DNA of 32,000 bases from Acaryochloris marina MBIC11017 (GCF_000018105.1 NC_009925.1:5010001-5042000); one strand, 5' to 3'; shown: positions 13,226 to 32,000, numbered from the stretch's first letter. Program-made: numbers and translations. The notes: a model not told the origin generated them from the letters alone.

Positions 13226-14221
13226 ATGGTGCAGATTAGTGATGTCCGGATTTTGATGATTGAAGATGATGAACAGGATGTAGAAATCATCAGAGAATTA
13301 CTAGAGGGCCGTCATAGTTTCCCTGCAGCTCTTGAGCATCGAAGTTCACTTGCAGAAGGGATAGCCCGACTCCATCACGAACCTGCCATTGACCTTGTGC
13401 TTCTTGATCTATCTTTAACGGATGCTAGTAATCTAGAAGCGTTTCAACACATTCAACTTGTGTTCCCAGAAATGCCCCTCATTATTCTTAGTGGAAATTT
13501 AGATCCATCTAGAGCATTATATCTATTGCAGAAAGGTGCACAGGATTGTCTATTTAAAGGGCATTTTGATGCTACTATCTTACGCTGCTCGATTCAATTT
13601 GCTCTAGAAAGGCAGAATCTTTGGTTGGAGTTAAGAGAAAAGAATAAAATTTTAGAGAAACTTTCTAATGAACTCAAAGTAGCTAACCATAAACTCGAAA
13701 AGATTTCAGCTATAGATAGCTTGACCCACATTAATAATCGACGTCGCTTTGATTCGATATTTCTAGCAGAATGGATTCGAATGATGCGAGAAAGGCAGCC
13801 CCTGTCTCTGATTCTCTGCGATGTCGATCACTTTAAGGCCTATAACGATACCTATGGACATCCTGCGGGAGATAAGTGTCTACAGCAGGTTGCTCGAGCC
13901 ATCTCTACGGTTGCCAAGCGTTCTGCAGACTGCGTGGCTCGTTACGGTGGAGAAGAATTTGTCGTAGTATTACCTAACACCGATCAATCCGGAGCGGTTC
14001 ATGTTGCCGAAGCCATTAGAACGGAAATTGAAGCGCTCAGTATTCCCCATTGTTCTTCCACTGTAAGTCAGTATGTCAGCCTTAGCTTAGGGGTAGCCAG
14101 TATCATTCCCAGCAAAGCAATAGCTCCATCTCAGTTGATTGAGCTGACAGACCAAGCTCTATATATGGCTAAAAAGCGAGGTCGCAATCGCACTCACACT
14201 ATGGAACTGATTCAAACGTAA
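13226..14221 (+). CDS. Response-regulator receiver + GGDEF diguanylate cyclase (predicted active)
   Basis: REC motifs are ILMIEDDEQD, DLVLLDLSL and CLFKG. A coiled linker follows. The GGDEF domain has DVDHFKAYNDTYGH, an I-site RSAD five residues before RYGGEEFVVVLP. Confidence 0.9.
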   Translation: MVQISDVRILMIEDDEQDVEIIRELLEGRHSFPAALEHRSSLAEGIARLHHEPAIDLVLLDLSLTDASNLEAFQHIQLVFPEMPLIILSGNLDPSRALYLLQKGAQDCLFKGHFDATILRCSIQFALERQNLWLELREKNKILEKLSNELKVANHKLEKISAIDSLTHINNRRRFDSIFLAEWIRMMRERQPLSLILCDVDHFKAYNDTYGHPAGDKCLQQVARAISTVAKRSADCVARYGGEEFVVVLPNTDQSGAVHVAEAIRTEIEALSIPHCSSTVSQYVSLSLGVASIIPSKAIAPSQLIELTDQALYMAKKRGRNRTHTMELIQT

Positions 14222-16194: not shown

Positions 16195-17997
16195 TTAACT
16201 TTCGGCTCCTTGACGAAATGGAATAGATTGATAAGTCACTAAGGTTTCAATCAGGGGTTGGGCTTGGGCATAATAATGACCTTGAGCAAAATCGATCCCA
16301 AAACTGGATATTGTGTCGAGGATAAGCTCAGATTCCACATACTCCGCAATTGTTTGCATACCCATACTTTTTGCAAGTCGATGGATGGCTCCGACAATTT
16401 CTGTAGCCACTGGATCAGAGCCTATATCTTTGACAAAGGAGCCATCAATTTTAAGATAGTCCGCGGGAATAGACTTAAGATGCATGAAAGAAGATAAGCC
16501 ATTACCAAAATCATCTAGGGCAACTTGACAGCCGATTGCGTTTAACTCGTTACTGAGTTTGGCTGCATTGGCTATGTTCTTCAGGGCAACGCTTTCACTA
16601 ATTTCAAAACAAAAGTCTTCTGGATATAAGTTGAAACGAGTGAGCTGTTGTTGCAAAAATTCTATAAGTTGTCCATTATTACAGCTTCTGGCCGATAAAT
16701 TAATAAAAAATTGAGTATTTTGCTCCATAGTTGCTTTAATTTTCTGGAGATCTGCAAATAGATGCTCAATAACCCAATGATCGATGCGATTCATATAGCC
16801 ATTTTGTTCTGCGATGGGTAAGAACAAACCAGGTGTTATGACTGTGCTGGGTTGATCACATAGGCGCAGTAAAATTTCAAAACATTGTTTCTCTCGATTT
16901 TGGCTGAGGGGGTGGATAGGTTGAGCATAGAGCTGGAAATAATCTTTTTCCAAGGCTTGCTCTATCCTCCGGGTCCACAATAATGTTTGGTTGGCTAGTT
17001 GTCTGGGATTTGTAGAATCAGATGTGTTTGCGGTGACCTGGTTTCGACCAAGATCCTTAGCTGTATACAAGGCTTGATCTGCAGATTGAATCAGGCTTGA
17101 AGCGGGAATGTCTTCGTTTGGTATTAGGCTGGCAACTCCCAAACTGAGGCTGATGTGCTTACTCACTGATGAATTGCGGTGGGGAATGTTGAGTTCCTCA
17201 ACTTCTTCCCGAATTGCTTCTGCAACGTGTAATGCCCCAGAAAGATCCGTGTTAGGGAGCAACACTACAAATTCTTCGCCCCCGTAGCGGGCTACACAGT
17301 CTGCGGGACGTTGGGCAATTCTAGCAATGGCTTGAGCAACTTGCTGTAAACACTGGTCTCCTGCTTGATGGCCATAAGCATCGTTATAGGCTTTGAAATG
17401 ATCGACATCGCCCAGAATTACTGATAGCGGTTGCTCTTCACGACATAAACGATGCCACTCTCGTTCAAAGACAGAATCGAACTGACGTCGATTATAAACT
17501 CGTGTTAACCCATCCATGGTAGCCAACCGTTCTAGTTCACGATTGGCAATTTCTAGTTGTTCTGAAAGGGCTAATAATGTTGTGTTTTTATACTGCAGCT
17601 CTAGTTGCTGTTTTTGTCTTTCTAATGCATATTGAATGGTGCGAGATAGAAGAGTGCTGTTAAAGCGTCCTTTGACTAAAAAGTCTTGAGCCCCATCCTG
17701 CATTGCTTCTATAGCTATCGTTTCATCTGTATTCCCAGAAAGGATAACCAGTGGCAGACTGGGGAACATTTCGTGAATCTTATGAAATGTTTCTAGACCC
17801 TGGGTATCTGATAGACAAAGATCCAATAAGACCAAGTCAATGGAGTTAACTTCATGTAGAAAGGTAATTCCTGTGGAGAGTGTCCGACGATGTTTGAGTG
17901 TAATTGCGCTTTTGTTTAAACTCAGCAATTTTCTAACAATTTCTACATCTTGGTCATCATCCTCAATGATCAAAATTTGAGTCCCACCAGCATACAT
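16195..17997 (-). CDS. REC + GGDEF + EAL protein (both catalytic motif sets intact)
   Basis: REC motifs are ILIIEDDDQD and DLVLLDLCL. GGDEF motifs are DVDHFKAYNDAYGH and RPAD-x5-GGEEF. EAL motifs are QPI, FEILLRL, INLS, EISES, LDDFGNG, LKIDGSF, AEYVES and AQGHYY. Confidence 0.9.
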   Translation of the reverse strand: MYAGGTQILIIEDDDQDVEIVRKLLSLNKSAITLKHRRTLSTGITFLHEVNSIDLVLLDLCLSDTQGLETFHKIHEMFPSLPLVILSGNTDETIAIEAMQDGAQDFLVKGRFNSTLLSRTIQYALERQKQQLELQYKNTTLLALSEQLEIANRELERLATMDGLTRVYNRRQFDSVFEREWHRLCREEQPLSVILGDVDHFKAYNDAYGHQAGDQCLQQVAQAIARIAQRPADCVARYGGEEFVVLLPNTDLSGALHVAEAIREEVEELNIPHRNSSVSKHISLSLGVASLIPNEDIPASSLIQSADQALYTAKDLGRNQVTANTSDSTNPRQLANQTLLWTRRIEQALEKDYFQLYAQPIHPLSQNREKQCFEILLRLCDQPSTVITPGLFLPIAEQNGYMNRIDHWVIEHLFADLQKIKATMEQNTQFFINLSARSCNNGQLIEFLQQQLTRFNLYPEDFCFEISESVALKNIANAAKLSNELNAIGCQVALDDFGNGLSSFMHLKSIPADYLKIDGSFVKDIGSDPVATEIVGAIHRLAKSMGMQTIAEYVESELILDTISSFGIDFAQGHYYAQAQPLIETLVTYQSIPFRQGAES

Positions 17998-19476: not shown

Positions 19477-20883
19477 TTACCAAGGACTACTGATCATCGT
19501 AAAGCCTGACCAATAGAAGGGGTGGGTGAAATCGATATTGGAAATATCTGAAACTTCGCTGGGTAAAGATAAAGGCGTATTGGAAAGGGTGAGTTGTCCA
19601 TTTTGGGCTTGAATTTGACCTCGAAGCATCCGCAATTGGGCTTGACGCAGGGCTTCTGATTTGGTCTTGTGGCGAGGCAACTGTTGATAAAATTCGCTCA
19701 TAATGGCTAGGGTGCCGACATCACTGACGTACCAGAGGCTTCCTAAAGCTGTTTTAACCCCTGCTTTGAGGGCGATACCAGCAAATCCTAACTCGGCAGT
19801 TTGATCCCCTAGTGCTGTTTTACAGGCACTTAGAACCAAGAGATCGAGGCTGGGCTTGGACCAGTCTAGGGTATTCATTTGGTCTAATCGGAGTTGGGTA
19901 TCTCGGAACTGGATAAATGACTGGTGGGGTTGACCAGGATTAAATTCGGCATGGGTGGCGAGATGAATAATATTGTAGGTTTGCTCGCTTAACTGAGTTT
20001 TGAGGTTCTTGAGGGTGAAATTGCGATTGAGTAAGGCTTGGCCCTGCCACTGGGATTGGTTTGGAAGACGGGCCTGGAGAAAGGTCAAAATAGCTGCAAT
20101 TTCTGTGGGAACGGATGGTAAAGACTCTAGTTGCAAAAATTCTGAGGCTCCACCGGCTAAGATTCTTCCCTGATTACGAGGGGTATATTCGGTTTGAATT
20201 AAGTTGAAGGCCGGAATATTGGTGAGGCTATACTGCTCGACGAGGTATTGTTCGCCATCGTGTAAGGCGGCTAAAGGTAGGCCTCGGAGTCCACTGCCTA
20301 AGCAAAACAATAAGGTATCAATATTGGCTGCTTGAAGATGCTCTTTTTCAAAGGGGGCAATCAGCCACTCATGAAGCTGTTGAGCAGGTGCTAGGTCCCA
20401 CTGACCAGGATCTTTGGCTTGTTCTCGGAAGGTCGCGACGGTTTTCAGAAGTTTTGCGCGTGGGACATCGTAGAGATCTCGAATAATGGGCTGGCCGCCG
20501 GGTAATAGCAAGACTAGATGTAAATGATCTTCACGAGGCATGATCCACAAGACCCCTGGATGGGTTCCAGTGGTTTGACTAATACGGCTCAGGGTTTGGG
20601 CAACTTCTGTCGGATCTTGGGTAACATCTGCGAGATCTTCGCCAAAGTAAGTTTCAAATTCTTTTTCGAAGCTCCGCTCCATGGCCAAGAAATTTTGGGT
20701 GACTTTGGGAGGGATAAATGGGCGGTTATATTCGGCTGAACTTGGCAGAGCATAGGTCCAGATACTGCAGAGGCTAATCAGGCCAATAAGGCGGGGAAGA
20801 TGAACTTGAAATTGGAGGAATCGTTGGTGCGATCGCATCCCCCTTCGTCTGGCTTGATTAAGGGTCGGATTCTGGCCCGGCAT
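19477..20883 (-). CDS. Secreted/periplasmic CHAT-domain (caspase-like) protein
   Basis: 468-aa ORF with a signal-peptide-like N-terminus (LIGLISLCSIWTYALPSSAEY). CHAT motifs are LFCLGSGLRGLPLAALHDG, IIHLATHAEF, LLVLSACKTALGD, SLWYVSD and HPFYWSGFTMISSPW. An alternative start is Met16 at 20838. Confidence 0.85.
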   Translation of the reverse strand: MPGQNPTLNQARRRGMRSHQRFLQFQVHLPRLIGLISLCSIWTYALPSSAEYNRPFIPPKVTQNFLAMERSFEKEFETYFGEDLADVTQDPTEVAQTLSRISQTTGTHPGVLWIMPREDHLHLVLLLPGGQPIIRDLYDVPRAKLLKTVATFREQAKDPGQWDLAPAQQLHEWLIAPFEKEHLQAANIDTLLFCLGSGLRGLPLAALHDGEQYLVEQYSLTNIPAFNLIQTEYTPRNQGRILAGGASEFLQLESLPSVPTEIAAILTFLQARLPNQSQWQGQALLNRNFTLKNLKTQLSEQTYNIIHLATHAEFNPGQPHQSFIQFRDTQLRLDQMNTLDWSKPSLDLLVLSACKTALGDQTAELGFAGIALKAGVKTALGSLWYVSDVGTLAIMSEFYQQLPRHKTKSEALRQAQLRMLRGQIQAQNGQLTLSNTPLSLPSEVSDISNIDFTHPFYWSGFTMISSPW

Positions 20884-20980
20884 ATCTAAACCCCGTGTAA
20901 AGTCTTACTTCTCAGTTTAAGGGTAAAGGCATGGCTAGACGATTCCAAATGGCGTCGTGAAGGATGAACCCTTGCAGATG

Positions 20981-21023
20981 GGGAACAAAAGAAATTCCCT
21001 GTAGGCTTTAAGCCTACAGGGAA
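20981..21023 (-). terminator. Intrinsic terminator (or attenuator) between the sigma-factor gene and the CHAT gene
   Basis: Perfect palindrome ttCCCTGTAGGCTttaAGCCTACAGGGaa at 20995-21023, with a stem of about 11-13 bp. On the minus strand it lies 32 nt after the sigma-factor stop and is followed by AAUUUCUUUUGUU. Confidence 0.6.
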
Positions 21024-21054
21024 GATGCATGTCCTATGTTTAGAGAGGAAGTGT

Positions 21055-21855
21055 TTAGTGTTCCGTTTGCAGAGCGTTAGGCTGTTGCTGTTGGAGTAAA
21101 TCGATTAGCTTGTCGATGCCCTTCTTCATGTTGCGAGTAACAGTGACGGAGCTGACACCGATGCGCTTGGCCACTTCTTGGCGAGAGAGCTGCTGGAAAA
21201 AGACGGACTCAATCATAATTCGGGTCCGATCTTCGAGCTGGTTTAAGGCTTGCTGAAGTTCGATGCGATCTTCTTGGTTGGCCTGCAGGATTTGGCTATG
21301 AACATCCATCAGGGTGTCACCTAGGGTCATAGCGGAGTCAGACTGAGAGTGACCAGAGGAGACCCGAGCGTTGAGGCTAAGGGGAACGCGATTGGTGGTG
21401 GCGAGTTTAACCGAACGCCATTCTTGCATGGAGAGGCTAAGGGCATCAGCGATTTCCTGATCGTTGGGCTGACGACCCAATTCCATGGTAAGGGCTTGTC
21501 TGGCTTTGGCAGCATCCCGGCTGAGCTGTTGCCAGCGGCGGGGGATGCGAACGGTGTTAGCACGGTCGCGAAGGAAGTGGAGGATTTCGCCGCGAATGTA
21601 AGGCACTGCGAAGGAACTGAAGGCATATCCTTGGGAGGGGTCAAAGCGCTCGATGGCAGTAATCAAACCTAGAAATCCGCATTGCTCTAGATCTTCGTAG
21701 GGCTCAGCGCACTGGTGGGTCAGACGGTGAGCGACCTTGCGAACGAGACCCATATTCAATCGCACGAGGCGGTTTCTGAGCTGAACGGAAGGCTTTTGGC
21801 GATAAGCGACCAGAAGTTCCATGGTTTGCGATTGAAGAGAAGTTTGATAAGCCAT
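21055..21855 (-). CDS. Group-3 sigma-70 family sigma factor (SigF-type)
   Basis: 266-aa ORF without region 1.1. Region 2 is DLEQCGFLGLITAIERFDPSQGYAFSSFAVPYIRGEILHFLRD. Region 3 is VRIPRRWQQL. The region 4 HTH is LSRQEVAKRIGVSSVTVTRNMKKGIDKL. Confidence 0.85.
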   Translation of the reverse strand: MAYQTSLQSQTMELLVAYRQKPSVQLRNRLVRLNMGLVRKVAHRLTHQCAEPYEDLEQCGFLGLITAIERFDPSQGYAFSSFAVPYIRGEILHFLRDRANTVRIPRRWQQLSRDAAKARQALTMELGRQPNDQEIADALSLSMQEWRSVKLATTNRVPLSLNARVSSGHSQSDSAMTLGDTLMDVHSQILQANQEDRIELQQALNQLEDRTRIMIESVFFQQLSRQEVAKRIGVSSVTVTRNMKKGIDKLIDLLQQQQPNALQTEH

Positions 21856-22111
21856 CGTTTTTTAAAGTCCTGTTTTCCTGTATCTGAAAATCATTATGAA
21901 GATCCTGAACTCGGAAAACCATCGTTAAAACACGGGAATATCAAACTTTTTGGGTTGTGATTTTTCCGCATTTCTACGGAGCTTTGCATGAATATGAATC
22001 ATGAGCTGAAAATAAGAAGATCCTGAAAAGCTTGTGAGAACTGGCATAGGGGGATCAGCGAACAATTTTATTTGGATAGAATAAAGGAAATGCAAGGAAA
22101 AAAAATTTTTA

Positions 22112-23455
22112 ATGAAGTTTAGGTTTCGCTGGTTAATCCTGGCTATTTTATGGCCCATTGTGATTTTTTTGAGTCAGGCTAGTCCGGCGTGGCCGTTTTA
22201 TTTAGGGGGAACTCAGGTTAATGAACCGGATGCATCCGTTTGGGTAAAGGAACTGAAATCAGCGGATATGAATACGGTGGAGGTGACGGTCTACGCCACC
22301 CAAGCCGAATGGGATTCACCTAACCTCAGATATGACGCTGAAGATGAGGGGGTGCTGCAAGAAATTCGGGCGGCTAAAGCGGCGGGACTAAATGTCGTTT
22401 TGATTTTGCGGCTGGCCTTGGATCATGCCTATCCTCACAATAATTTCATCTGGCATGGACTAACGATGCCGGAGACGGATGCCCAACTGGCTGATTGGTT
22501 TGAGACCTACACCACATTTGTCGCCCAATGGGCGGAAATTGCAGAAGCGGAGGGGGTCGATATGGTGGGAATTGGTAGTGAAATGAATGCCTTGACTTCC
22601 ACGTTGCCAGTACAGGATGTGCCGGATTTAGAGCGCTACTACCTCGACCCAATTGAGCAGCGGGCGCTGATCCATAATCTGCTGAAGTATAAAGATCGGA
22701 TTCCCTTTGCCGAACTGCAGCTGAAAGGGGGGTATCAATTTCCCACTTTAGAAGCGTTTTTAGAGGAGCGACTGAAGGCTTGGCAAGCCTGGGCTAAACA
22801 GGTGAGTTATCCAGGGGAAGTGGATCCGATTGCTGCGATTAACCGTCGTCGGCAACGTTTGGATCGGCACTGGCGGCAATTGATTCAGCACACTCGCCAG
22901 ATTTATTCTGGCAAACTCACCTATGCAGCGAATTTTGATCAATATCAGTCGGTGGGGTTTTGGGATGCTTTGGATGTGATTGGGGTGAACGCGTATTTTC
23001 CGTTGCGATCGCAACCTCAATTCCGAAATCAACGCCAGTTAAAGCAGCAGCTCTCGTCAGGATGGCGGAAAATTCTGGGGGATATGGATGCCTTTCGCCG
23101 AGACCAGTCTATTCGAAATAAGCCTGTGATTTTTACGGAGTTAGGCTACACTCGCTGGGACCAAAATACTCTCGCTCCTTGGAGTTATAGGGGCTTTTCC
23201 TTAGTTGGGAAGCCAGGGCAACAAGAGGTGATTTTATGGACGATGCAGCCTACGAATGATCAGGAACGGGTATTGGCGGTGCAAGCCCTCTATCAAACCG
23301 TCAAAAAGCACTATCCCAATTTGCTGCAGGGCATTCTGTACTGGAAAATATCTACCCAACCCGATCACCAATCCTTGGAGCCCTTTGTGCTGATTTTGAA
23401 TGACTCACCTGTCGATCCATTGCAAAAAATCTTGCAGAAGTTTTTGAAGAAGTAG
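22112..23455 (+). CDS. Secreted TIM-barrel glycoside-hydrolase-like protein (clan GH-A-like; family unassigned)
   Basis: 447-aa ORF with a signal peptide (LILAILWPIVIFLSQASPA). The alternating beta/alpha pattern has candidate catalytic Glu residues in GIGSEMN and VIFTELGY. The functional call is tentative. Confidence 0.55.
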   Translation: MKFRFRWLILAILWPIVIFLSQASPAWPFYLGGTQVNEPDASVWVKELKSADMNTVEVTVYATQAEWDSPNLRYDAEDEGVLQEIRAAKAAGLNVVLILRLALDHAYPHNNFIWHGLTMPETDAQLADWFETYTTFVAQWAEIAEAEGVDMVGIGSEMNALTSTLPVQDVPDLERYYLDPIEQRALIHNLLKYKDRIPFAELQLKGGYQFPTLEAFLEERLKAWQAWAKQVSYPGEVDPIAAINRRRQRLDRHWRQLIQHTRQIYSGKLTYAANFDQYQSVGFWDALDVIGVNAYFPLRSQPQFRNQRQLKQQLSSGWRKILGDMDAFRRDQSIRNKPVIFTELGYTRWDQNTLAPWSYRGFSLVGKPGQQEVILWTMQPTNDQERVLAVQALYQTVKKHYPNLLQGILYWKISTQPDHQSLEPFVLILNDSPVDPLQKILQKFLKK

Positions 23456-23572
23456 ATCACCCAGCAAGAGGGGGGCTGCAGGATGTGGAATATTTTCTTC
23501 TAGCTAAACAGCCCAGATTGGGGTGATTTGAGCCCATTTAGTCCTTTCTTTGGTTCCCACCTTCGAGAGGGT

Positions 23573-24820
23573 CTAATCAACACGTATCGTGAGTTTACTC
23601 AGCTCAGAACTGGGGACAACGGCCTGAACTGTGAAATTAAACCGTCCAAGGCGGGCACCTTGTAAATTTGCTTGCAGTGGATCAACGTTAATGGAGATAT
23701 CACTGTCATAGACAATTGCAGTACAGGATTGTCCCACTAAATCATTGAGTTGAGCATTGCCTAAGGGCTGAATGTTCAGGACTTCATCGAGATTGGTTTG
23801 AGGCAGATTCCCAGCTAAAAAATCATTGAGGGATAAGGGGCCGTTTTGACCATTCAAGGTCTGGGGCAGAGAAAAGACACCTTCATCGCCTGTTTGCCCA
23901 GTGGGGATAGTCACGATGTCTCCGGTATAGCTGGTATTCCAGAGAAAAGTAGGATTCCCTAGCTGGGTCGGGTTATTTTTATTAATCAAGGCATTCACGC
24001 TAATGCCTTTGTTTTGGGCAGCGTCTTGAATGGTGGGGATATCGCTGTCTATGCTGTCTTCATCCATGACTAGAAGACATGCAGTTGAATTGGTTGTCCC
24101 CAATGAAGTTCCAGAAGTCTGGGCAAATTCTAGGGCACGGATAGCGGTTGTGGAGCTATATCGGTAAGTATCCGTTTGCGCCAAGACTTTGTTAATTCTG
24201 CCGGTTTGATAGACTTTGGCGATGTCGCCCGTGGCATTAACGCAGACATAGAATCCAGGGGTGCCCGAACCGACCCAGTTGGTTTCACAGGTGGGCAGGG
24301 AGCCTTCACTTTCAATCAGATCAATGAGGGGCTCATGGGGCCATTGGGTTGGGGCATCAGGATTGATATAGGTCCCCTGATCGTCATAGGCAGGCCCCCA
24401 CCGATAGATTGCTTTAGGACCCTGCCAAATACCGTTAGGGGGTGTAGCGAGATAGTAGACGATGGGGATGAGGTTGGTCTGAGCCATTCTTAGCATCAGG
24501 ACGGGCTGAACTTGGGATATGTCTGGGCTGATACCTGACAAGAATTCGATGGGTTGTTCAGAACTGATAGAGGCATCCTGGACAATTGTGGCGGCTGTTC
24601 TGATTTCCTGGGCTATAAAGTCTCCAGCTCGATTCAGTTCTACGCGACGTTCGTTTTGAGCGTTGGTGGTGGTGCTGGTGGTGATGATGGAGACCAAACC
24701 ATAGCCACTTAGGGTGATGAGAAAAAAGCTGATGACACCCCCCACCAACAACTCCGTTAGGGTAAATCCTGCTATCGATGGACGGTCGATTTGCCTTTTA
24801 TGCACGGGCTTGATAGCCAT
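23573..24820 (-). CDS. Prepilin-type N-terminal cleavage/methylation domain protein (large minor-pilin/pseudopilin-like)
   Basis: 415-aa ORF with a class III signal: a basic leader (KPVHKRQIDRPSIA), then G/FTLTELLVGGVISFFLITLSGYGLV. The C-terminal region of about 350 aa has no motif I recognise. Confidence 0.8.
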   Translation of the reverse strand: MAIKPVHKRQIDRPSIAGFTLTELLVGGVISFFLITLSGYGLVSIITTSTTTNAQNERRVELNRAGDFIAQEIRTAATIVQDASISSEQPIEFLSGISPDISQVQPVLMLRMAQTNLIPIVYYLATPPNGIWQGPKAIYRWGPAYDDQGTYINPDAPTQWPHEPLIDLIESEGSLPTCETNWVGSGTPGFYVCVNATGDIAKVYQTGRINKVLAQTDTYRYSSTTAIRALEFAQTSGTSLGTTNSTACLLVMDEDSIDSDIPTIQDAAQNKGISVNALINKNNPTQLGNPTFLWNTSYTGDIVTIPTGQTGDEGVFSLPQTLNGQNGPLSLNDFLAGNLPQTNLDEVLNIQPLGNAQLNDLVGQSCTAIVYDSDISINVDPLQANLQGARLGRFNFTVQAVVPSSELSKLTIRVD

Positions 24821-24897
24821 AAAATATTATGCCAAGAGAGTATAAAAGTAGATTTATTAAAGAGCGAATCGTTGTTGCTGATTTTTTTAGCTTTTTT

Positions 24898-24950
24898 AGA
24901 ATAGCTAGATTTATTTTTTTGTGCCTTGAGAATAGCTGGATTTATTTTTT
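24898..24950. repeat. Two 22-bp direct repeats, 31 bp apart, in the divergent promoter region between the pilin-like gene and the cassette
   Basis: agaatagctAgatttatttttt (24898-24919) and agaatagctGgatttatttttt (24929-24950) match at 21 of 22 positions. A third partial copy, tagatttatt, is at 24849-24858. Confidence 0.7.
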
Positions 24951-25284
24951 GCACCCTCTTCGATTGAAAAATGCCTATTAAATATGGAGTTGTGCAATCC
25001 GTTGTGAAGTGAAGAAGACGTTAACTTAAATGCTGGTTGCTATCCCTTGTGAGTAGGTTGATTGGATAAATGACTGTGTGGTACAGAGATGAATAAGTTT
25101 GGGAATTGGATGGGGATTGAGGGCTGAATTCTACTGGGCGTTTGCTATCAATATCCGTGCAAATGAATTAATGTCGCGACTCTGATCTTCTGAAGACTTT
25201 AAACGGTCTAGGTTTGCATATATTCTGAAAAAAAGACTGATAAGTCTTGGGTGATGTGACGGAACTGGAGGTTGTGGGGACTCG

Positions 25285-27474
25285 GTGAGAAAAATCCTGA
25301 TTTTGGCAGCCAATCCTAAGAACACCAATCAGCTCAGATTGGATGAAGAGGTGCGGGAAATTCAGGAAGGGCTGCAGCGATCGCGCAGTCGAGACCAGTT
25401 TGAAATTGTGTCTCGGTGGGCGGTTCGTCCCAGCGATTTACGACGGGCGCTGTTGGATTATGAACCGCAAATAGTCCATTTCTGTGGCCATGGGGCTGGG
25501 GCTGAGGGATTAGCCCTGGAGAACAATGCGGGGCAGATAAAGCTGGTTACTGGGAAGGCGCTGGGCGGACTGTTTAAGCTGGTGCAAGCAAATGTGGAAT
25601 GTGTCTTGCTTAATGCCTGCTATTCAGAGGCTCAATCGAAGGCGATCCACAAATATATTAGCTATGTGATTGGTATGAGTAATGCCATCGGCGACCGGGC
25701 GGCCATTGAGTTTGCTGTGGGGTTTTATGATGGCTTGGGCGCAGACCGCTCCTACGAAGATGCCTTTGAATTTGGGTTGTCGGCCATTGCCCTGGAAGGG
25801 ATTGACGAGACGGCTACGCCGAAGTTGAAATCGCCAGGACCAGGCTCCTCCCCAAACTCTGTTCAACGGATTAACCCGTCATCTGCGCAAAAGCCTGAAT
25901 CTGAGAATAAGACTGCCAACAACCCTTTGTCGGGGGAGGGAAAAGCCCGGATTTTTATCAGCTATAAACGGGATGCTGTACCGGATGAACAGTTGGCTTT
26001 GGCGATTTATCAGCATTTGGGCCAAAGCCATGAAGTGTTTATCGATCAGAGCATGGCGGTGGGCACAAAGTGGGCCGAGAAGATTGAGCGGGAACTCCGA
26101 CAGTCGGATTTTTTGATTACGTTATTGTCGGCTTCGGCGGTGGGAAGTGAGATGGTTCAGGGGGAGGTGGAAACGGCGAATCGGCTGGGAAGTGAATTGG
26201 GTAAGCCTGCGATTCTGCCTGTTCGGGTCAATTATCGGGAGCCGTTTACCTATCCCCTCAGTGCTTACCTAAATCCAATTAACTGGGCGTTTTGGGAGCA
26301 GTCGGAAGATACGCCCCAATTATTGGCAGAACTGGAGCGGGCCATTGCTGGCGAATCCTTGTCGATTGCTTCGGATAGGGCCAAACAAGATCTGGTCCAA
26401 CTGCCGACGGCAGATAAGGCTGAGATTCCGCAGCCCCTGCCTTCGGCCCAACCCCCAACGCTGGAAATGCCGGAGGGGTCGATGGACCCGGAGTCGCAGT
26501 TTTATGTGGAGCGCCAGGGGGACCAGATTGCCTTGGCAGCAATTCAGCGGCAGGGAGTGACAGTGACGATTAAGGGACCGCGCCAGATGGGCAAGAGTTC
26601 CTTGCTGCTAAAGACCGTCGATCAGGCGATTCAGGCAGATAAGCGAGTGGCTTATATTGATTTTCAGTTGTTTGATGATGCGGCTTTGGGGGATGCGGAT
26701 CGGTTTTATCAGCAGTTTTGCCTGACGATTACAGAGCAGTTGGAACTGCCAAACCGAATTGAGGACTTTTGGCAGGATGAGTTGGGGAATAACCAGCGCT
26801 GTACTCGGTATATGCAGACTTATGTGCTGCGGGAGCTAAAGCATCCGTTTGTGCTGGCGATGGATGAGGTGGATCGGATTTTTGATCGCAAGTTTCGGTC
26901 GGATTTCTTTGCCATGTTGCGGAATTGGCACAACAATCGGGGGTTACCTTTGCCCGCGATGAAGGTGTGGAAGCAGTTTGATCTGGTGCTGGTGACAGCG
27001 ACGGAGCCCTATCACCTGATCGCAGATTTGCACCAGTCGCCCTTCAACGTGGGGGAAGTGATTTCTCTGAAAGACTTTACGGCGGCGCAGGTGGCGGATT
27101 TGAACCAACGGCATGGTTCGCCTTTAACCGCCGAACAGGAGCGGGCGTTATTTGCTCTGCTGAATGGCCATCCCTATCTAATTCGCAAGGCGCTTTATCT
27201 GGTAGCCAGTGGTCAAAAGTCGATGGATCAGGTGTTGGCGAAGGCAGATCGGGATGATGGACCCTTTGGTGATCATCTGCGGTATCACTTATTTCGAATA
27301 TATGATCGGCCCGAACTGGTGCAGGGGATGTTGGGGGCGGTTCAGAAGAATCGATGCGAGGATGAGCGGATTGTACGGCTGCTCTGTGCGGCGGGCCTAA
27401 TTCGCCAGGAGGGGAAAGCAGAGTTGCCCCGCTGTCAGCTTTATGGGGACTACTTTAAGGCACATCTGGAATAG
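25285..27474 (+). CDS. Three-module protein: compact CHAT/caspase-like domain + TIR domain + AAA-like (AAA_35-type) P-loop ATPase
   Basis: The start is GTG 25285; the frame opens after TGA 25252-25254 and has no earlier start codon, and GGAGG lies at 25267-25271. aa 1-170 carry KILILAANP, LRLDEEVREIQ, IVHFCGHG (His69, nt 25489-25491) and VLLNACYS (Cys112, nt 25618-25620). aa 221-300 carry RIFISYKRD...VFIDQ...KWAEKI...FLITLLSASAVGSEMVQGEVE. aa 400-729 carry FYVERQGD, Walker A GPRQMGKSS (Lys437, nt 26593-26595), Walker B FVLAMDEVD, SPFNVGE and NGHPYL. Confidence 0.85.
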   Translation: MRKILILAANPKNTNQLRLDEEVREIQEGLQRSRSRDQFEIVSRWAVRPSDLRRALLDYEPQIVHFCGHGAGAEGLALENNAGQIKLVTGKALGGLFKLVQANVECVLLNACYSEAQSKAIHKYISYVIGMSNAIGDRAAIEFAVGFYDGLGADRSYEDAFEFGLSAIALEGIDETATPKLKSPGPGSSPNSVQRINPSSAQKPESENKTANNPLSGEGKARIFISYKRDAVPDEQLALAIYQHLGQSHEVFIDQSMAVGTKWAEKIERELRQSDFLITLLSASAVGSEMVQGEVETANRLGSELGKPAILPVRVNYREPFTYPLSAYLNPINWAFWEQSEDTPQLLAELERAIAGESLSIASDRAKQDLVQLPTADKAEIPQPLPSAQPPTLEMPEGSMDPESQFYVERQGDQIALAAIQRQGVTVTIKGPRQMGKSSLLLKTVDQAIQADKRVAYIDFQLFDDAALGDADRFYQQFCLTITEQLELPNRIEDFWQDELGNNQRCTRYMQTYVLRELKHPFVLAMDEVDRIFDRKFRSDFFAMLRNWHNNRGLPLPAMKVWKQFDLVLVTATEPYHLIADLHQSPFNVGEVISLKDFTAAQVADLNQRHGSPLTAEQERALFALLNGHPYLIRKALYLVASGQKSMDQVLAKADRDDGPFGDHLRYHLFRIYDRPELVQGMLGAVQKNRCEDERIVRLLCAAGLIRQEGKAELPRCQLYGDYFKAHLE

Positions 27475-27487
27475 GTAGAGGGAGGGT

Positions 27488-30400
27488 ATGGGGACTGAGA
27501 TTTATACCGTTGGCGGTACCGTGCAGGCGAATGCCCAGGGGCTGTATATTCCTCGGCAGGCGGACCAAGACCTGTTGCAGCTTTGCCGAGACTCGACTTT
27601 TGCCTATGTGTTGACGCCACGGCAGATGGGCAAGTCCAGTTTGATGATGCGGACGGCAGAAACGCTCTATGAGGAAGGTATTGCTGCTGTAATTATTGAC
27701 CTGACTACAATTGGGACTCAGTTGACGGCGGACCAATGGTATTTGGGATTGTTAACTGAAATTGCTGATCAGTTGGTGCTGTCGGTGAATGTCTATCAGT
27801 GGTGGCAAGCGCGTCAACATTTGGGAGGGACCCAGCGGCTGAGTCATTTTTTTGAGCAAGTGGTGATCCCAGAAACGACTGACCCGGTGGTGATCTTTAT
27901 TGATGAGATTGATACCACGCTGACTTTGGGTTTTGCGGATGATTTCTATGCAGCAATCCGGGGATTATATGTGGCTAGGGCGAAACAGCCAGTGTTACAT
28001 CGACTGTCCTTTGTGTTGATTGGGGTGGCAACGCCGAGTGATTTGATTAAAGACGCCAAGCGGACGCCTTTTAATGTGGGAGAACGGGTGGAGCTAACTG
28101 ATTTTACCCAGGCTGAAGTGTTGCCAATGGCGACAGGTTTGGGATTAGAAAGTCAGCAGGCAGAGCAAGTATTGGGGTGGGTGTTGAAGTGGACGGGGGG
28201 ACATCCTTACCTCACCCAACGGCTGTGTAAGGCGCTGGTAGATGAGGGGAAGCAGGATTGGCAAGAGTCGGATGTGGATCGGATAGTTCGCCGCACATTT
28301 CTGGCGGAGGAAAGCGAAAAAGACAATAATCTGCAGTTTGTGCGGGATATGTTGACGAAGCGGGCACCTGAAGATTTAGAAGAAGAGGTCCTCAAGTCTT
28401 ATCGGGTAAAAGTTCTCAAGACCTATCGGGAGGTGCAAAGTGATAAGTCTCCTGTTAAAGATGAAGAGCAATCTCTGGTGATATCTCATCTGAAACTCGC
28501 TGGGGTGGTGAGAAAAGAGGGTGAACTACTTAAAAATCGTAATCTTATTTATATAACTGTTTTTGATAGGAGGTGGATTCAGCAACATTTACCAGAGAGT
28601 TTGTGGCAAAAACTCAAGCCAGCGATGCCATTGATTGCTTTTTTGTCAACTGTATCAGTTGCAGTGTCAGGCTTAGCAGTTTATGCGATTAATCAAAGGA
28701 ATGAAGCTAGATTGGCAAAGAGTGAAGCTCAAAAATCTGAAGTAAGAGCTGAACAAAAAGCTAATGATGAAGAATATGCCAAAAAACAAACTGAAATTGC
28801 CCTTGAACAATCTCGCCGGAATGAAAAAGCAGCTAAAAACGCAGCGCGCGAAGCTCAACGGCAAAAGAAATTTGCTCAAAAGTCAGCGTTACTTGCAAAG
28901 CGTCGATTGCAGCAAGTGAATTCAGCACGCAAAGCGGAAGTTATAGCGAGAGAAAAAGCTCAAAAAGCCCAAAACTTAACTGAACGTCTACTAACCGAAG
29001 CTGAATTCCAGAAAAGCTTTGCAATCACACAAAGTGAAATAGCCAATCAAGAAAGAGCTGAAGCTGAAAAAGCAACAAAAATAGCAAAATACCAGACTGG
29101 CTTGGCCGAAATGAGGCAGCATAATGCTGAACTTTTAGCAGCAGCACTCAATGCTGAGAAACTTTTTGGAAGTGGGTTGGAGATTGCTTCACTAGTTGAA
29201 AGCCTCAAAGTAGCCCAAAAACTTAAGGATTTAATTGAGCTAAAACAAGTTCAACCTAGGGTGAGAATTCAGTCTATTGCGATCCTTAAAAATATTGTAT
29301 ATGGAATTAAAGAGCAGAATCAATTAACCGGTCATAGAGTCGGGGTCCGGTCCGTAACATTCAGCCCCGATGGCCAGACCCTCGCGTCCGGGAGTGCTGA
29401 CGGCACCGTGAAGCTGTGGGATAGACAGGGCAAGGAACTGGCTTCTTTCACAGGCACGGGATATGGCACTAGCATCAATTCCGTGGTCTTCAGTCCCGAT
29501 GGTCAGACCCTTGCTTCCGGGGGGTGGTTCGGCACCGTAAAGTTGTGGGACAGACAGGGCAAGGAACTGGCCTCCTTCAAGGGACATGGCAATTCGGTCA
29601 TGTCCGTGGTCTTCAGCCCCGATGGTCAGACCCTCGCATCTGGGAGTAGAGACGGCACCGTAAAGCTGTGGAATAGAAAGGGCAAGGAATTGGCCTCCTT
29701 CACCGGACACTTCACTGGACGTTCCTGGTTGCATAGTAATGTGGTCAATTCTGTGGTCTTCAGCCCCGATGGCCAGACCCTCGCGTCTGGGAGCTCTGAC
29801 GGCACCGTGAAGCTGTGGGACAGACAGGGCAAGGAACTGGCCTCCTTCACAAAACGTGGCGCTAGCATCAATTCCGTGGTCTTCAGCCCCGATGGTCAGA
29901 CCCTTGCCTCCGGCAGTACTGACGGCACCGTGAAGCTGTGGAACAGACAGGGCAAGGAACTGGCTTCCTTCACAGGACATGGTGATGCGGTCATGTCCGT
30001 GGTCTTCAGCCCTGACGGCCAGACCCTTGCCTCCGGGAGTAGAGACGACACCGTGAAACTGTGGGACAGACAGGGCAAGGAACTAGTCTCCTTCACTGAA
30101 CGTGGTGATTCGGTCATGTCTGTGGCCTTTAACCCCGATGGTCAGACCCTCGCTTCCGGGGGGATTAGAGGTGTTGTGAAGCTGTGGGATAGACAGGGCA
30201 AGGAACTGGCCTCCTTCAAGGGACATGGCAATTCGGTCAGCTTTGTGGCCTTCAGCTCCGACGGTCAGACCCTCGCCTCCAGGAGCACTGACGGCATCGT
30301 GAAGCTGTGGGGCAGACAGGGCAAGGAACTGGCTTCCTTCACGGGCGGTAGGGCCAAATCCGTGGCCTTCAGTCCCGATGGCCAGACCCTTGCCTTCGAG

Positions 30401-31315
30401 GATTCTGAGGGCACCATGAAGTTGTGGGACAGACAGGGCAAGGAATTGGCCTCCTTCAACGGACATGGCAATTTGGGCATGTCTGTGGTCTTCAGCCCCG
30501 ACGGTCAGACCCTCGCCTCCGGGAGTCATTATGGCTCCGTGAAGCTGTGGGATAGACAGGGTAAGGAACTGGTTTCCTTCAAGGGACATGGCAATTCGGT
30601 CAATTCTGTGGCCTTCAGCCCCGATGGTCAGACCCTCGCCTCCGGGAGTGTTGACGGCACCGTAAAGCTGTGGGGCAGACAGGGCAAGGAACTGGCCTCC
30701 TTCAACGGACATGGCAATTCGGTCAATTCTGTGGTCTTCAGTCCCGATGGTCAGACCCTCGCCTCCGGGAGTAGAGACGGCACCGTAAAGCTTTGGAATA
30801 GACAGGGCAAGGAATTGGCCTCCTTCAAGGGACATGGCGATTCGGTCATGTCCGTGGCCTTCAACCCCGATGGTCAGACCCTCGTCTCCGGGAGTACTGA
30901 CGGCACTGTGAAGCTGTGGGATAGACAGGGCAAGGAATTGGCCTCTTTCACTGGACATAGCTCTTCGGTTAATTCCGTGGCCTTCAGCTCCGACGGTCAG
31001 ACCCTCGTTTCTGGGAGTGATGACCGCACCGTGAAGCTATGGAATATGGACCTCGAACACTTAAGAGAATTGGGCTGCCAATGGTTAGGCAACTATTTTG
31101 CCAACAATCCGACTGGTCAAAAGCAGAGAGAAGTCTGCAATGGCGTTACAGGATCATCTCAACTTCAAGATAGCCAAGCAAAATTTTTCTCGGTTCATCA
31201 AATTCCTTTCCAGCTAGCAATGCAATTGCAGAACTTACCCATGCATATAACTGAGAGCTACAGAAACTTAGAAACTTCGTTGAAATTACTTGAATTTCCT
31301 CACTCCAAATCTTGA
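27488..31315 (+). CDS. AAA-like (AAA_35-type) P-loop ATPase + hydrophobic helix + coiled coil + 14 WD40 repeats
   Basis: ATG 27488 lies 13 nt after the stop of the upstream gene and is preceded by GAGGGAGGG. aa 1-370 carry YTVGGTV, YIPRQADQDL, TPRQMGKSS, VVIFIDEID, TPFNVGE and GGHPYL. aa 378-401 are PAMPLIAFLSTVSVAVSGLAVYAI. aa 402-560 are a K/E/A/Q-rich heptad-like region. aa 614-1186 are 14 WD40 units (GHxxxVxSVxFSPDGQTLASGSxDGTVKLWD). The C-terminal LGCQWLGNYFANNP...C motif is typical of cyanobacterial WD40 proteins. Confidence 0.9.
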   Translation: MGTEIYTVGGTVQANAQGLYIPRQADQDLLQLCRDSTFAYVLTPRQMGKSSLMMRTAETLYEEGIAAVIIDLTTIGTQLTADQWYLGLLTEIADQLVLSVNVYQWWQARQHLGGTQRLSHFFEQVVIPETTDPVVIFIDEIDTTLTLGFADDFYAAIRGLYVARAKQPVLHRLSFVLIGVATPSDLIKDAKRTPFNVGERVELTDFTQAEVLPMATGLGLESQQAEQVLGWVLKWTGGHPYLTQRLCKALVDEGKQDWQESDVDRIVRRTFLAEESEKDNNLQFVRDMLTKRAPEDLEEEVLKSYRVKVLKTYREVQSDKSPVKDEEQSLVISHLKLAGVVRKEGELLKNRNLIYITVFDRRWIQQHLPESLWQKLKPAMPLIAFLSTVSVAVSGLAVYAINQRNEARLAKSEAQKSEVRAEQKANDEEYAKKQTEIALEQSRRNEKAAKNAAREAQRQKKFAQKSALLAKRRLQQVNSARKAEVIAREKAQKAQNLTERLLTEAEFQKSFAITQSEIANQERAEAEKATKIAKYQTGLAEMRQHNAELLAAALNAEKLFGSGLEIASLVESLKVAQKLKDLIELKQVQPRVRIQSIAILKNIVYGIKEQNQLTGHRVGVRSVTFSPDGQTLASGSADGTVKLWDRQGKELASFTGTGYGTSINSVVFSPDGQTLASGGWFGTVKLWDRQGKELASFKGHGNSVMSVVFSPDGQTLASGSRDGTVKLWNRKGKELASFTGHFTGRSWLHSNVVNSVVFSPDGQTLASGSSDGTVKLWDRQGKELASFTKRGASINSVVFSPDGQTLASGSTDGTVKLWNRQGKELASFTGHGDAVMSVVFSPDGQTLASGSRDDTVKLWDRQGKELVSFTERGDSVMSVAFNPDGQTLASGGIRGVVKLWDRQGKELASFKGHGNSVSFVAFSSDGQTLASRSTDGIVKLWGRQGKELASFTGGRAKSVAFSPDGQTLAFEDSEGTMKLWDRQGKELASFNGHGNLGMSVVFSPDGQTLASGSHYGSVKLWDRQGKELVSFKGHGNSVNSVAFSPDGQTLASGSVDGTVKLWGRQGKELASFNGHGNSVNSVVFSPDGQTLASGSRDGTVKLWNRQGKELASFKGHGDSVMSVAFNPDGQTLVSGSTDGTVKLWDRQGKELASFTGHSSSVNSVAFSSDGQTLVSGSDDRTVKLWNMDLEHLRELGCQWLGNYFANNPTGQKQREVCNGVTGSSQLQDSQAKFFSVHQIPFQLAMQLQNLPMHITESYRNLETSLKLLEFPHSKS
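29327..31045 (+). repeat. Intragenic tandem DNA repeat, 14 units with a basic period of 123 bp (the WD40 array)
   Basis: The anchor agaCagggcaagg (or agaAagggcaagg) recurs at 29423, 29552, 29675, 29822, 29945, 30068, 30191, 30314, 30431, 30554, 30677, 30800 and 30923. Spacings are 123 bp, except 129, 147 and 117. Long identical nucleotide runs persist through synonymous sites. Confidence 0.95.
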
Positions 31316-31647
31316 TAAAGCATTTCAAACCCAGAACGGTCTATTCTACGATTACCCTGTTTTGGAGAACGTTACCATCTGTACAATTTCAAGGCAATCA
31401 ATGGCTGCTGAGTTGCGTTCAGAGGATGCTTGGCCTTATAGGTAATAAGCTGAAGGGCTAGGGAGAAAAACCTTTTTTGGTATAAAAATGGAGTCTGATG
31501 GCCCTTACCCTACCAATCTTGGGAGAGGGACTTTTAAGACTTCATTCTTAGAGAATGGAAAAAGTGTTGCCAGTTGCGCAAGAAACGGGTGGTTTTTACC
31601 GCTCAAGATCGATACCGTAGACGGAGAAAACTGACTGACTCAACACC

Positions 31648-32000
31648 ATGCCTCCTCCAAATACCATTGCCAGCGAGATAGACACCTACGATCGCATCTC
31701 CGATGCCATTACTTTTATTCGCCAGCATCACCTAGAGCAGCCCAATCTTTCAACCATCGCCCAGCACGTCAACCTCAGCGACTATCACTTTCAGCGATTA
31801 TTCACCCAATGGGCAGGGATTAGCCCCAAACGCTTTCTCCAATACCTGACTCTAGACTATGCAAAATCGAGAATCGATCAGTCCCAGAATCTGCTAGCCC
31901 TAACCGCCGAGTCAGGACTATCCAGCCCAGGACGACTCCACGACTTATTCATCACCCTAGAAGCCATGTCTCCCGGTGAATACCGAGCAGGAGGGGCTGG
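31648..32000 (+). CDS. AraC-type HTH protein, Ada/AdaA-methyltransferase-like N-terminus (3' end beyond the window)
   Basis: The frame is open from ATG 31648 to the window end. The AraC HTH is LSTIAQHVNLSDYHFQRLFTQWAGISPKRFLQYLTLDYAK, followed by SGLSSPGRLHDLFITLEAMSPGEYRAGGAG. I recognise that pattern from AraC-fused methylated-DNA-protein-cysteine methyltransferases. This ORF is not in the supplied track because it has no stop. Confidence 0.6.
   Translation, partial: MPPPNTIASEIDTYDRISDAITFIRQHHLEQPNLSTIAQHVNLSDYHFQRLFTQWAGISPKRFLQYLTLDYAKSRIDQSQNLLALTAESGLSSPGRLHDLFITLEAMSPGEYRAGGA

Follow-up and report, generated by a model that had tools for sequence, protein, structure and literature searches.

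In a 32,000-nucleotide stretch of DNA from Acaryochloris marina MBIC11017 (GCF_000018105.1, NC_009925.1:5010001-5042000; hereafter the window), we analyzed a gene for a protein of 1275 amino acids, the C-terminal part of which is an array of WD40 units. Our data suggest, with a probability of roughly two in three, that this array serves for ligand recognition in a cyanobacterial NTPase system encoded by two genes. The protein is called the sensor protein in the following, and the product of the gene immediately upstream is called the partner. The reading is based on an excess of amino acid replacements at top-face positions of the WD40 blades, on the exchange of the entire C-terminal module between related strains and on the domain composition of the partner.

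Structure of the WD40 array

The open reading frame (ORF) of the sensor protein is located on the plus strand (27488..31315, 3828 nucleotides) and its C-terminal part consists of 14 in-frame WD40 units, which occupy nucleotides 29324..31060 of the same strand (amino acids 613-1191). These coordinates were obtained from the translation, with the unit boundaries anchored on the invariant KLW motif. Tandem Repeats Finder reported a period of 123 nucleotides with 13.5 copies and 72% matches for the region 29360-31046. Higher-order periods proposed by this program (246, 270, 369) were rejected, since the identity-by-lag profile was flat at 0.78-0.81. In their order along the protein, the units comprise 38, 43, 41, 49, 41, 41, 41, 41, 39, 41, 41, 41, 41, and 41 amino acids. 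The modal length is 41 residues and unit 1 (38 residues) is truncated at its N-terminus, so that it lacks the leading strand. All length variants are multiples of three nucleotides and the ORF is intact. The initial annotation, which had been made from the nucleotide sequence, listed unit classes of 123, 129, 147, and 117 bp and these were reproduced in the translated ORF. The residues it had read in front of the conserved Asp (A, W, R, S, T, R, I, T, S, H, V, R, T, D) matched exactly in the 14 units, and the variable segments preceding SVxF as well as the units that have lost the GH or the Asp (GGWFG, GGIRG, FEDSEG, GSHYG) were all found. The F, DGQTL, and KLW motifs are invariant over the 14 units and GKE-L is present in 13 of them.

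The Pfam WD40 profile matched the array in 13 stretches (E = 1.3e-161). The AlphaFold2 model of amino acids 560-1275 (predicted local distance difference test, pLDDT, 78.7) involves 56 strands, which form 14 groups of four and thus 14 four-stranded blades. In unit columns, strand a covers positions 19-24, strand b 30-35, strand c 39-44, and strand d 49 plus 1-5. The initial annotation had proposed that fourteen units would build two seven-bladed propellers. This fits the best match in both sequence and structure searches (2YMU), and the 14 units are predicted to fold in this way. His and Asp of the blade tetrad are both absent from units 2 (29438-29566), 7 (30083-30205), and 9 (30329-30445), while in unit 10 (30446-30568) the Asp alone is missing and in unit 5 the His alone. 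The AlphaFold model is less confident for blades 8-10 and where unit 4 carries its insertion of 8 residues.

Two antisense ORFs cross the array (29324-29980, minus strand, 218 amino acids; 30083-30958, minus strand, 291 amino acids). Their own sequences are repetitive, too, and seem to result merely from the codon composition of the repeats, with no sign of being genes. Promoter and terminator scans yielded counts that did not exceed the shuffled expectation.

Amino acid replacements at top-face positions

The minimum number of amino acid changes per column was over-dispersed (index 1.97, p = 0.0003). Thirteen of the 41 aligned columns are invariant and four columns hold 37% of the non-synonymous differences. 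The highest entropies were found, in this order, for columns 36, 17, 20, and 18. According to Wu et al. 2012 (PMC3419727), top-face hotspots of WD40 proteins can be deduced from the motif [VLI]-R1-R2-[VLI], where R1-2 is located two residues before R1 and where D-1 precedes the tetrad Asp. In our array, R1-2 corresponds to column 18, R1 to column 20, and D-1 to column 36, so that the three hotspots defined a priori take three of the four top entropy ranks (P = 3.8e-4). D-1 takes nine different states over the units. R1 is mostly two-state (6 Asn, 5 Met, plus Arg, Ser, and Lys) and the Asn and Met units are interspersed rather than arranged in blocks.

When the AlphaFold strand assignment was used, the hotspot columns were localized at the D-A loop/start of strand a and at the B-C turn. 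This top-face mapping is based on strand topology and on homology with 2YMU and it describes the secondary structure level. The variable columns had been assigned to the ligand-contacting top face in the initial annotation, with a location in the interior or at the bottom or an even spread named as the outcome that would contradict it. Here, we found the variable columns clustered at the R1-2, R1, and D-1 positions of the top face. The ratio of non-synonymous to synonymous rates (dN/dS) was 1.55 for the D-A loop (top) and 1.83 for the B-C turn (top) but 0.06 for the A-B loop (bottom) and 0.14-0.23 for strands b, c, and d.

Pooled Nei-Gojobori estimates of dN/dS were 3.4 at the three hotspot columns and 0.28 elsewhere. 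Minimum-change counting yielded a non-synonymous to synonymous ratio of 17:1 at the hotspots, but of 47:39 elsewhere (Fisher p = 0.001). The proportion of non-synonymous differences at the hotspot codons (pN = 0.61) was about double the proportion of synonymous differences (pS), which was not raised at these codons (0.29 vs. 0.36 elsewhere). This lack of additional synonymous differences argues against a purely mutational explanation. We next applied a fixed-effects codon model, in which the remaining 38 codons served to estimate kappa and the branch lengths, under equal synonymous rates. A hotspot omega of 8.1 was obtained (likelihood-ratio statistic 49 vs. omega = 1) and the scaffold omega was about 0.3. 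On neighbor-joining, UPGMA, and star trees the hotspot omega varied between 7.7 and 9.6 (p < 1e-11 in this single-tree model). Per-site omega values were 19 for column 36, 5.4 for column 20, 3.8 for column 18, and 3.0 for column 17, and they did not exceed 1.2 for all other columns. At the codon level, these comparisons show that the scaffold of the blades is under purifying selection, and that R1-2, R1, D-1, and an adjacent loop residue (column 17) have accumulated excess amino acid replacements. The initial proposal of diversifying selection on the top face is thus in line with a dN/dS of 3.4 and an omega of about 8 at the hotspots.

Exchange of the C-terminal module between strains

A search with the N-terminal part of the sensor protein yielded 2948 matches, which are nearly all cyanobacterial and share the same architecture. 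For the nearest N-terminal relatives, best local alignments yielded 74-77% identity (84-89% within the first 382 amino acids), and their C-termini differ strongly, with 0, 1, 3, or many WD units. Relative P0001 (locus L002/L003) has one WD unit, P0006 lacks WD repeats, and P0018, which is encoded by A. marina MBIC11017, carries three WD units of a different flavor. In the case of P0002 the contig ends inside the first WD unit. The contig of A. marina NIES-2412 (L004, 8001-9859) ends at the first WD unit and many other homologues are likewise classified as partial. In public assemblies, homologous genes very frequently break off at the end of a contig, right at the beginning of the WD array, so that database repeat counts for this family are systematically unreliable.

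The P0001 locus (L002/L003) is collinear with the window and involves the gene order CHAT, sigF, GH113, a 432-amino acid gene, CHAT-TIR-AAA_35, and sensor. When we aligned the window with L002 by blastn, positions 19580-29025 and 31484-32000 matched at 80-87% identity and nothing aligned in between. The intervening 2459 nucleotides of the window (29025..31484, plus strand) comprise the last part of the stalk, the complete array and tail, and also 170 nucleotides downstream. In L002 their place is taken by 659 unrelated nucleotides with one WD unit of a different flavor and a different tail. From an unrelated segment between conserved collinear flanks we conclude that strains exchange the sensor module as a cassette. 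As judged from this alignment, it is the whole C-terminal module that has been shown to be exchanged (14 units here, one at the syntenic locus). The initial annotation had stated that identical orthologues in related strains would refute a rapidly evolving sensor. The reverse was observed, since repeat number and sequence differ completely at the collinear locus.

Similarity of the units and concerted evolution

On average, pairs of units are identical in 79% of their nucleotides (63-93%), 74% of their amino acids (49-93%; median 74%), and 71.5% of third codon positions. The pooled synonymous divergence (dS) between units was about 0.48, with an overall dN/dS of 0.38. The longest exact direct repeat comprises 49 nucleotides and there are 11 identical runs of at least 30 nucleotides. 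Thus, the long identical nucleotide runs described in the initial annotation do exist but they are modest. The term highly homogenized was overstated, since the array, with 74% amino acid identity and a dS of about 0.48, remains below the fungal benchmark, for which a repeat conservation threshold of about 85% at the amino acid level has been given for NLRs (Dyrka 2014, PMC4986451). Hu et al. 2017 (PMC5587647) define Highly-Repetitive WD40 proteins by at least 6 of 8 contiguous repeats with all pairs at 0.7 or higher. The array falls into this class through units 1-6, for which every pairwise identity is 0.74-0.85, and it is above the 60% cut-off of Pereira & Lupas 2022 (PMC9218822). Among the 131 retrieved homologues with at least 6 units, 19% equal or exceed the array in internal similarity. 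At the protein level, single units are nearly as close to unrelated cyanobacterial WD40 units as to one another, and unit 14 is an outlier that is nearer to the terminal units of other proteins. For four flanking genes, a dS of 0.48-1.1 separates this strain from the closest collinear one, and the dS among the units is of the same order.

The synonymous-site similarity shared by the units shows that the array arose through amplification of one 41-residue blade. A Sawyer-type permutation test for mosaic structure yielded p = 0.0045 for the sum of squares and p = 0.73 for the longest tract, and the most similar units of the array are non-adjacent. Concerted evolution by ongoing exchange between units, as postulated in the initial annotation, is therefore only weakly indicated and, in this one genome, a single amplification followed by divergence gives the same picture.

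Searches of genome contigs, proteins, and metagenomes did not reveal any paralogous or orthologous array of the same unit type. Looking up the exact sensor protein sequence yielded no record. Scanning genome contigs with the N-terminal 613 amino acids yielded a single distant locus (Leptolyngbya PCC 6406, 58%), and the best matches of the WD-array protein search were 38-55% identical overall, with no orthologous array among them. A metagenome scan with the unique pre-array linker gave no match. With the unit DNA motif 120 metagenomic loci were retrieved, all of them at most 72% identical to the array at the nucleotide level and thus generic WD40 genes.

Sensor protein outside the array

The N-terminal NTPase module of the sensor protein (27488..28603, plus strand, amino acids 1-372) was defined by Pfam and AlphaFold and comprises a P-loop, a helical domain, and a winged-helix-like hairpin. 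Pfam assigned it to AAA_35 (E = 2.1e-34), with otherwise weak generic AAA matches, and neither NACHT nor NB-ARC was detected in the scan of this domain. Its AlphaFold model reached a pLDDT of 89.9 and a predicted template modeling score (pTM) of 0.87. Foldseek neighbors of the module include the archaeal ATPase SSO1545, Orc1/Cdc6, MalT, Avs3, and plant NLRs, so that it may belong either to the STAND or to the Orc/Cdc6-like AAA+ proteins. Walker A (G48-K49-S50/51) and Walker B are intact, and the Walker A residues and D139-E140 are invariant or nearly so in the homologues.

Hydrophobicity and homologues predict a single transmembrane helix, MPLIAFLSTVSVAVSGLAVYAI, downstream of this module (28625..28690, plus strand, amino acids 380-401). 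It contains the most hydrophobic 19-mer of the protein (Kyte-Doolittle 2.0) and an equivalent segment was found in 97 of 121 homologues. Its N-terminal flank carries a net charge of about +1.6 and its C-terminal flank one of about 0, which favors an N-in/C-out topology. The helix is followed by a Lys/Glu/Ala/Gln-rich helical stalk, which by its composition is a probable coiled coil, and by a helical linker (together 28691..29323, plus strand, amino acids 402-612). For the pre-array linker AlphaFold modeled helices at amino acids 565-584 and 590-608.

A C-terminal cap and tail (31061..31315, plus strand, amino acids 1192-1275) follow the array and extend to the stop codon. They carry a GCxW...C motif, which was taken from the homologue consensus past the last blade (LxxLxxxGCxWxxDYLxxN...C). 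This region had no Pfam match, and AlphaFold modeled helices with low confidence past amino acid 1220. The sensor protein has four Cys residues, two in the NTPase module and two in the cap (Cys1197, Cys1217; codons 31076-31078 and 31136-31138, plus strand), and none in the 579-residue array. The cap pair, with a spacing of about 21, is present in 53 of 132 homologues and could form a disulfide.

Partner gene and neighborhood

The partner gene (25285..27474, plus strand) encodes a protein of 729 amino acids, which involves a CHAT domain (amino acids 3-169), a TIR domain (223-340), and an AAA_35 module (395-725). The Pfam E-values were 2.9e-114 for AAA_35, 2e-18 for TIR_2, and 8e-9 for CHAT. PADLOC detected chat (E = 7.5e-20) and also SAVED_CHAT and TIR, all of them as domain-level matches only. 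The protein carries the dyad-like motifs HFCGHG and LNACYS, a Walker A motif (PRQMGKSSL), and a Walker B motif (LAMDEVD). We presume that this gene is the effector half of a two-gene pair. The AAA_35 modules of partner and sensor are paralogous (31% identical, E = 4e-31). The two genes are separated by 13 nucleotides (27475..27487, plus strand), which hold a GGAGG (TAG GTAGAGGGAGGGT ATG), a spacing that suggests operon-like coupling. An identical spacing was found in L002 (7987/8001), and a CHAT-TIR-AAA_35 gene precedes the sensor gene in L002, L003, and L004.

The surroundings are cyanobacterial, with a SigF of the PRK07408 type and an HpsC-like pseudopilin. A fungal origin of the locus was rejected because of these two genes and because all close homologues are cyanobacterial. 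The pseudopilin gene (23573-24820, minus strand, 415 amino acids) encodes a prepilin-like N-terminal segment, and its HpsC match is weak (E = 1e-12, below cut-off). It is located between GH113 and the operon and is kept in L002 as the 432-amino acid gene. Three CHAT (caspase-like) genes lie within 32 kb, for which the coordinates 1387-2805 (plus), 2929-4080 (plus), 19477-20883 (minus), and 25285-27474 (plus) were listed. One of the three is directly preceded by a TPR-repeat gene and this may be another small sensor/protease pair. Moreover, the window contains three response-regulator genes with GGDEF or GGDEF+EAL domains (cyclic-di-GMP; 13226-14221, plus; 14262-16076, minus; 16195-17997, minus), and this cluster adjoins an M28 peptidase gene.

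Relation to known systems

The system closest to ours is WRAP/Npun_R6612 (Chaudhuri 2008; Dunin-Horkawicz 2014; Afanasieva 2019, PMC6805158; Pereira & Lupas 2022, PMC9218822). The 2YMU structure represents the WRAP domain of Npun_R6612 from Nostoc punctiforme, which has 14 blades in two seven-bladed propellers (PMC9218822). In the passages of PMC9218822 that deal with Dunin-Horkawicz 2014, WRAP is described as the C-terminus of a STAND ATPase, the gene of which is coupled to a TIR-STAND ATPase gene; in other cyanobacteria the partner adds a caspase domain, and the fast propeller turnover is taken to suggest a role in innate immunity. When we searched the PDB with phmmer, 2ymu_A was the top match (E = 2.2e-207), followed by designed WRAP variants. 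Foldseek also ranked 2YMU first for the array (E = 2e-63, 55% identity, template modeling score 0.78 over 580 columns). For three Nostoc proteins with KLWNRNG WRAP-type units (P0057, P0062, P0085), the identity to the sensor protein is 47-48% within its first 613 amino acids, of which the alignments cover 99-100%. As in WRAP/Npun_R6612, an ATPase protein ends in 14 blades with 41 residues each, the ATPase is homologous to that of the WRAP-bearing Nostoc proteins, and the upstream partner combines TIR, a caspase-like domain, and a paralogous ATPase. A non-synonymous bias among the blades and a fast propeller turnover between relatives are also shared. In contrast, the Nostoc WRAP blades are near identical, with 10 point mutations and no synonymous changes (PMC9218822), whereas our blades (79% of nucleotides and 74% of amino acids identical, dS about 0.48) are not the product of a recent amplification. 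The amplification of the array is therefore much older or less homogenized. Further differences are three units with loop indels, four blades without the conserved Asp, and the host lineage, which is Acaryochloris and not Nostoc. Taken together, the array is a further, moderately diverged member of the described cyanobacterial WRAP-type two-gene family.

Highly repetitive WD40 proteins keep a conserved scaffold and vary at hotspot sites, and for them whole-repeat dS and omega but not site-specific omega values have been given (Hu et al. 2017, PMC5587647). The array shares the conserved scaffold and the diverse hotspots, but it falls into the lowest band of identity (0.7-0.8).

With the fungal NACHT-WD NLRs the array has in common the internally conserved WD repeats, the repeat-number polymorphism, and the coupling to cell-death-type effectors. 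In the HET-E, HET-D, and NWD repeats of Podospora the same WD40 positions are under positive selection (Paoletti 2007, PMC1805685). As in HET-E/NWD, the replacement excess of the array concerns the two residues on either side of the conserved Val (R1-2, R1) and the one in front of the Asp, all on the top face. However, the fourth fungal site (D+1, column 38) is a conserved Gly here (omega 0.21). Moreover, the protein is bacterial and involves AAA_35 instead of NACHT or NB-ARC, its effector is located on a separate partner protein, its internal identity is 74% rather than about 85%, and a transmembrane helix is predicted between NTPase and repeats. The initial annotation had described such repeats as a signature of fungal NLR-type recognition proteins. 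Because of the cyanobacterial host, the AAA_35 module, and the lower identity this does not hold for our array as family membership. The fungal parallel is real at the level of the mechanism, where the same codon positions are concerned.

Similarities also exist with bacterial STAND receptors (Avs, bNACHT, Apaf-1-like WD40 STANDs; PMC13581612). The NTPase-helical-winged-helix part is close to MalT, Avs3, and plant NLRs, the repeat sensor is C-terminal, TIR and caspase-like effectors are involved, and such receptors are enriched in cyanobacteria. In contrast to these receptors, effector and sensor are distributed over two proteins with paralogous NTPases and the sensor is, by prediction, membrane-anchored. 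Unlike the bacterial STAND defense systems, the sensor matches no PADLOC model.

Proposed mechanism and membrane topology

If the array is the recognition module, a ligand (possibly a phage protein, a foreign cell, or a self signal) would bind to the variable top faces of the propellers. Binding would drive a nucleotide-dependent oligomerization of AAA_35, probably with the paralogous module of the partner. Oligomerization might then activate the TIR and/or CHAT effector, as in NLR/Avs-type immunity, in the apoptosome, or in programmed cell death. By analogy with these systems, we infer an immune role of the two genes. The initial idea of a rapidly evolving sensor is retained as far as top-face variability, double propeller, and fast evolution are concerned, whereas the fungal taxon was wrong and the homogenization and the concerted evolution were overstated.

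The NTPase module is necessarily cytoplasmic and, provided that the predicted helix crosses the membrane, the stalk and the two propellers would lie on the other side. Such a location is suggested by the conserved helix with its flank charges, by the absence of Cys from the array, and by the conserved Cys pair of the cap. A display of the propellers outside the cytoplasm, instead of an intracellular NLR-like sensor, is a tentative reading of the sequence, to which we give about one chance in three. If correct, the system would represent a bacterial counterpart of Toll-like receptors, with a variable ectodomain of repeats that is swapped as a cassette between strains. The ectodomain would signal across the membrane to the cytoplasmic NTPase, which would recruit the TIR/caspase-like partner. 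Its ligands would then come from the periplasm or from surfaces, for example phage tail proteins or neighboring cells.

Alternative explanations

Several observations weigh against the array as ligand-recognition module. The predicted transmembrane helix is at odds with a simple cytosolic NLR-like picture, and PADLOC assigned no system model to the sensor gene but only the generic repeat match HEAT-ARM_XIII. The loss of tetrad residues from four blades, together with the lower model confidence, could indicate incipient decay. The codon tests assume a single tree without gene conversion and single-nucleotide steps, and the mosaic test suggests some exchange between units (p = 0.0045 for the sum of squares). 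When the 17:1 count at the hotspots was compared with strict neutrality, a conservative test, p was 0.085. Finally, the same columns are variable in any WD40 family, appearing as x in the consensus of 47 unrelated homologues, so that part of the pattern is ordinary relaxed constraint. The last two points would be expected if a fairly young amplification of one blade were simply diverging, with loops that vary through lack of constraint and possibly decay. Such a drift scenario would also account for the missing Asp (units 2, 7, 9, 10) and His (units 2, 5, 7, 9), for the low pLDDT of blades 8-10, and for an internal similarity that 19% of the homologues with at least 6 units attain, which makes the array ordinary for its family; frequent decay of such propellers was reported by Pereira & Lupas (PMC9218822). 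Nevertheless, we consider it unlikely, because the omega of the a priori hotspots (7.7-9.6) is significantly higher than 1 with three tree shapes, because pN at these sites (0.61) is about double pS, and because the ORF of 3828 nucleotides is intact with in-frame length variants and a scaffold omega of 0.3. The system might instead serve non-immune membrane signaling or act as a scaffold, with endogenous envelope, motility, or developmental partners and with CHAT-TIR for regulated proteolysis or signaling. The conservation of transmembrane helix and stalk in homologues, the nearby motility/hormogonium-type genes (sigF, HpsC-like pseudopilin, GGDEF/EAL regulators), and the missing match of the sensor gene to a defense-system model fit this possibility. 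However, endogenous partners would favor neither the diversification of hotspots nor the wholesale replacement of a sensor module between strains with collinear flanks, and TIR, a caspase-like protease, and paired NTPases are a combination typical of conflict systems (PMC9218822, PMC13581612), so that a non-immune function appears quite improbable.

Short reads may collapse, expand, or shuffle repeats, which would make unit number and order an assembly artefact, and many homologues are indeed partial, with contigs that end in the WD array (L004 at the first unit). In our array the units differ by 7-37% of their nucleotides and, with a longest exact repeat of 49 nucleotides, reads of 100-150 nucleotides can bridge units, so that collapse is unlikely. 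Since, in addition, the reading frame stays open over its whole length, indels come in multiples of three, and unique sequence flanks the array on both sides in one contig, we regard such an artefact as very improbable. Targeted hypermutation, either by a diversity-generating retroelement or at a local mutational hotspot, might also produce variable codons, and such retroelements reportedly diversify putative sensors in multicellular cyanobacteria (PMC10907252, PMC7517822). There was, however, no reverse transcriptase among the Pfam-scanned window ORFs of at least 100 amino acids and tblastn found no template repeat outside the array; the array was rejected as a retroelement target on these grounds. 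The hotspot codons lack raised synonymous differences, and the variable codons occupy fixed positions in every unit rather than one variable repeat. Hypermutation is therefore hardly credible as the source of the variability.

Biological implications

WRAP-type two-gene systems are thought to be prokaryotic relatives of the NLR/apoptosome machinery, to which the array adds a well-resolved member. Its blades are old enough for synonymous differences, which permits a site-wise test that the near-identical Nostoc WRAP cannot give. The replacement excess falls on three canonical WD40 contact positions that are also selected in fungal allorecognition NLRs. Site-specific excess and cassette exchange are nothing new in kind, since such arrays have already been described, but the locus is a reasonable candidate for the study of ligand recognition and membrane topology.

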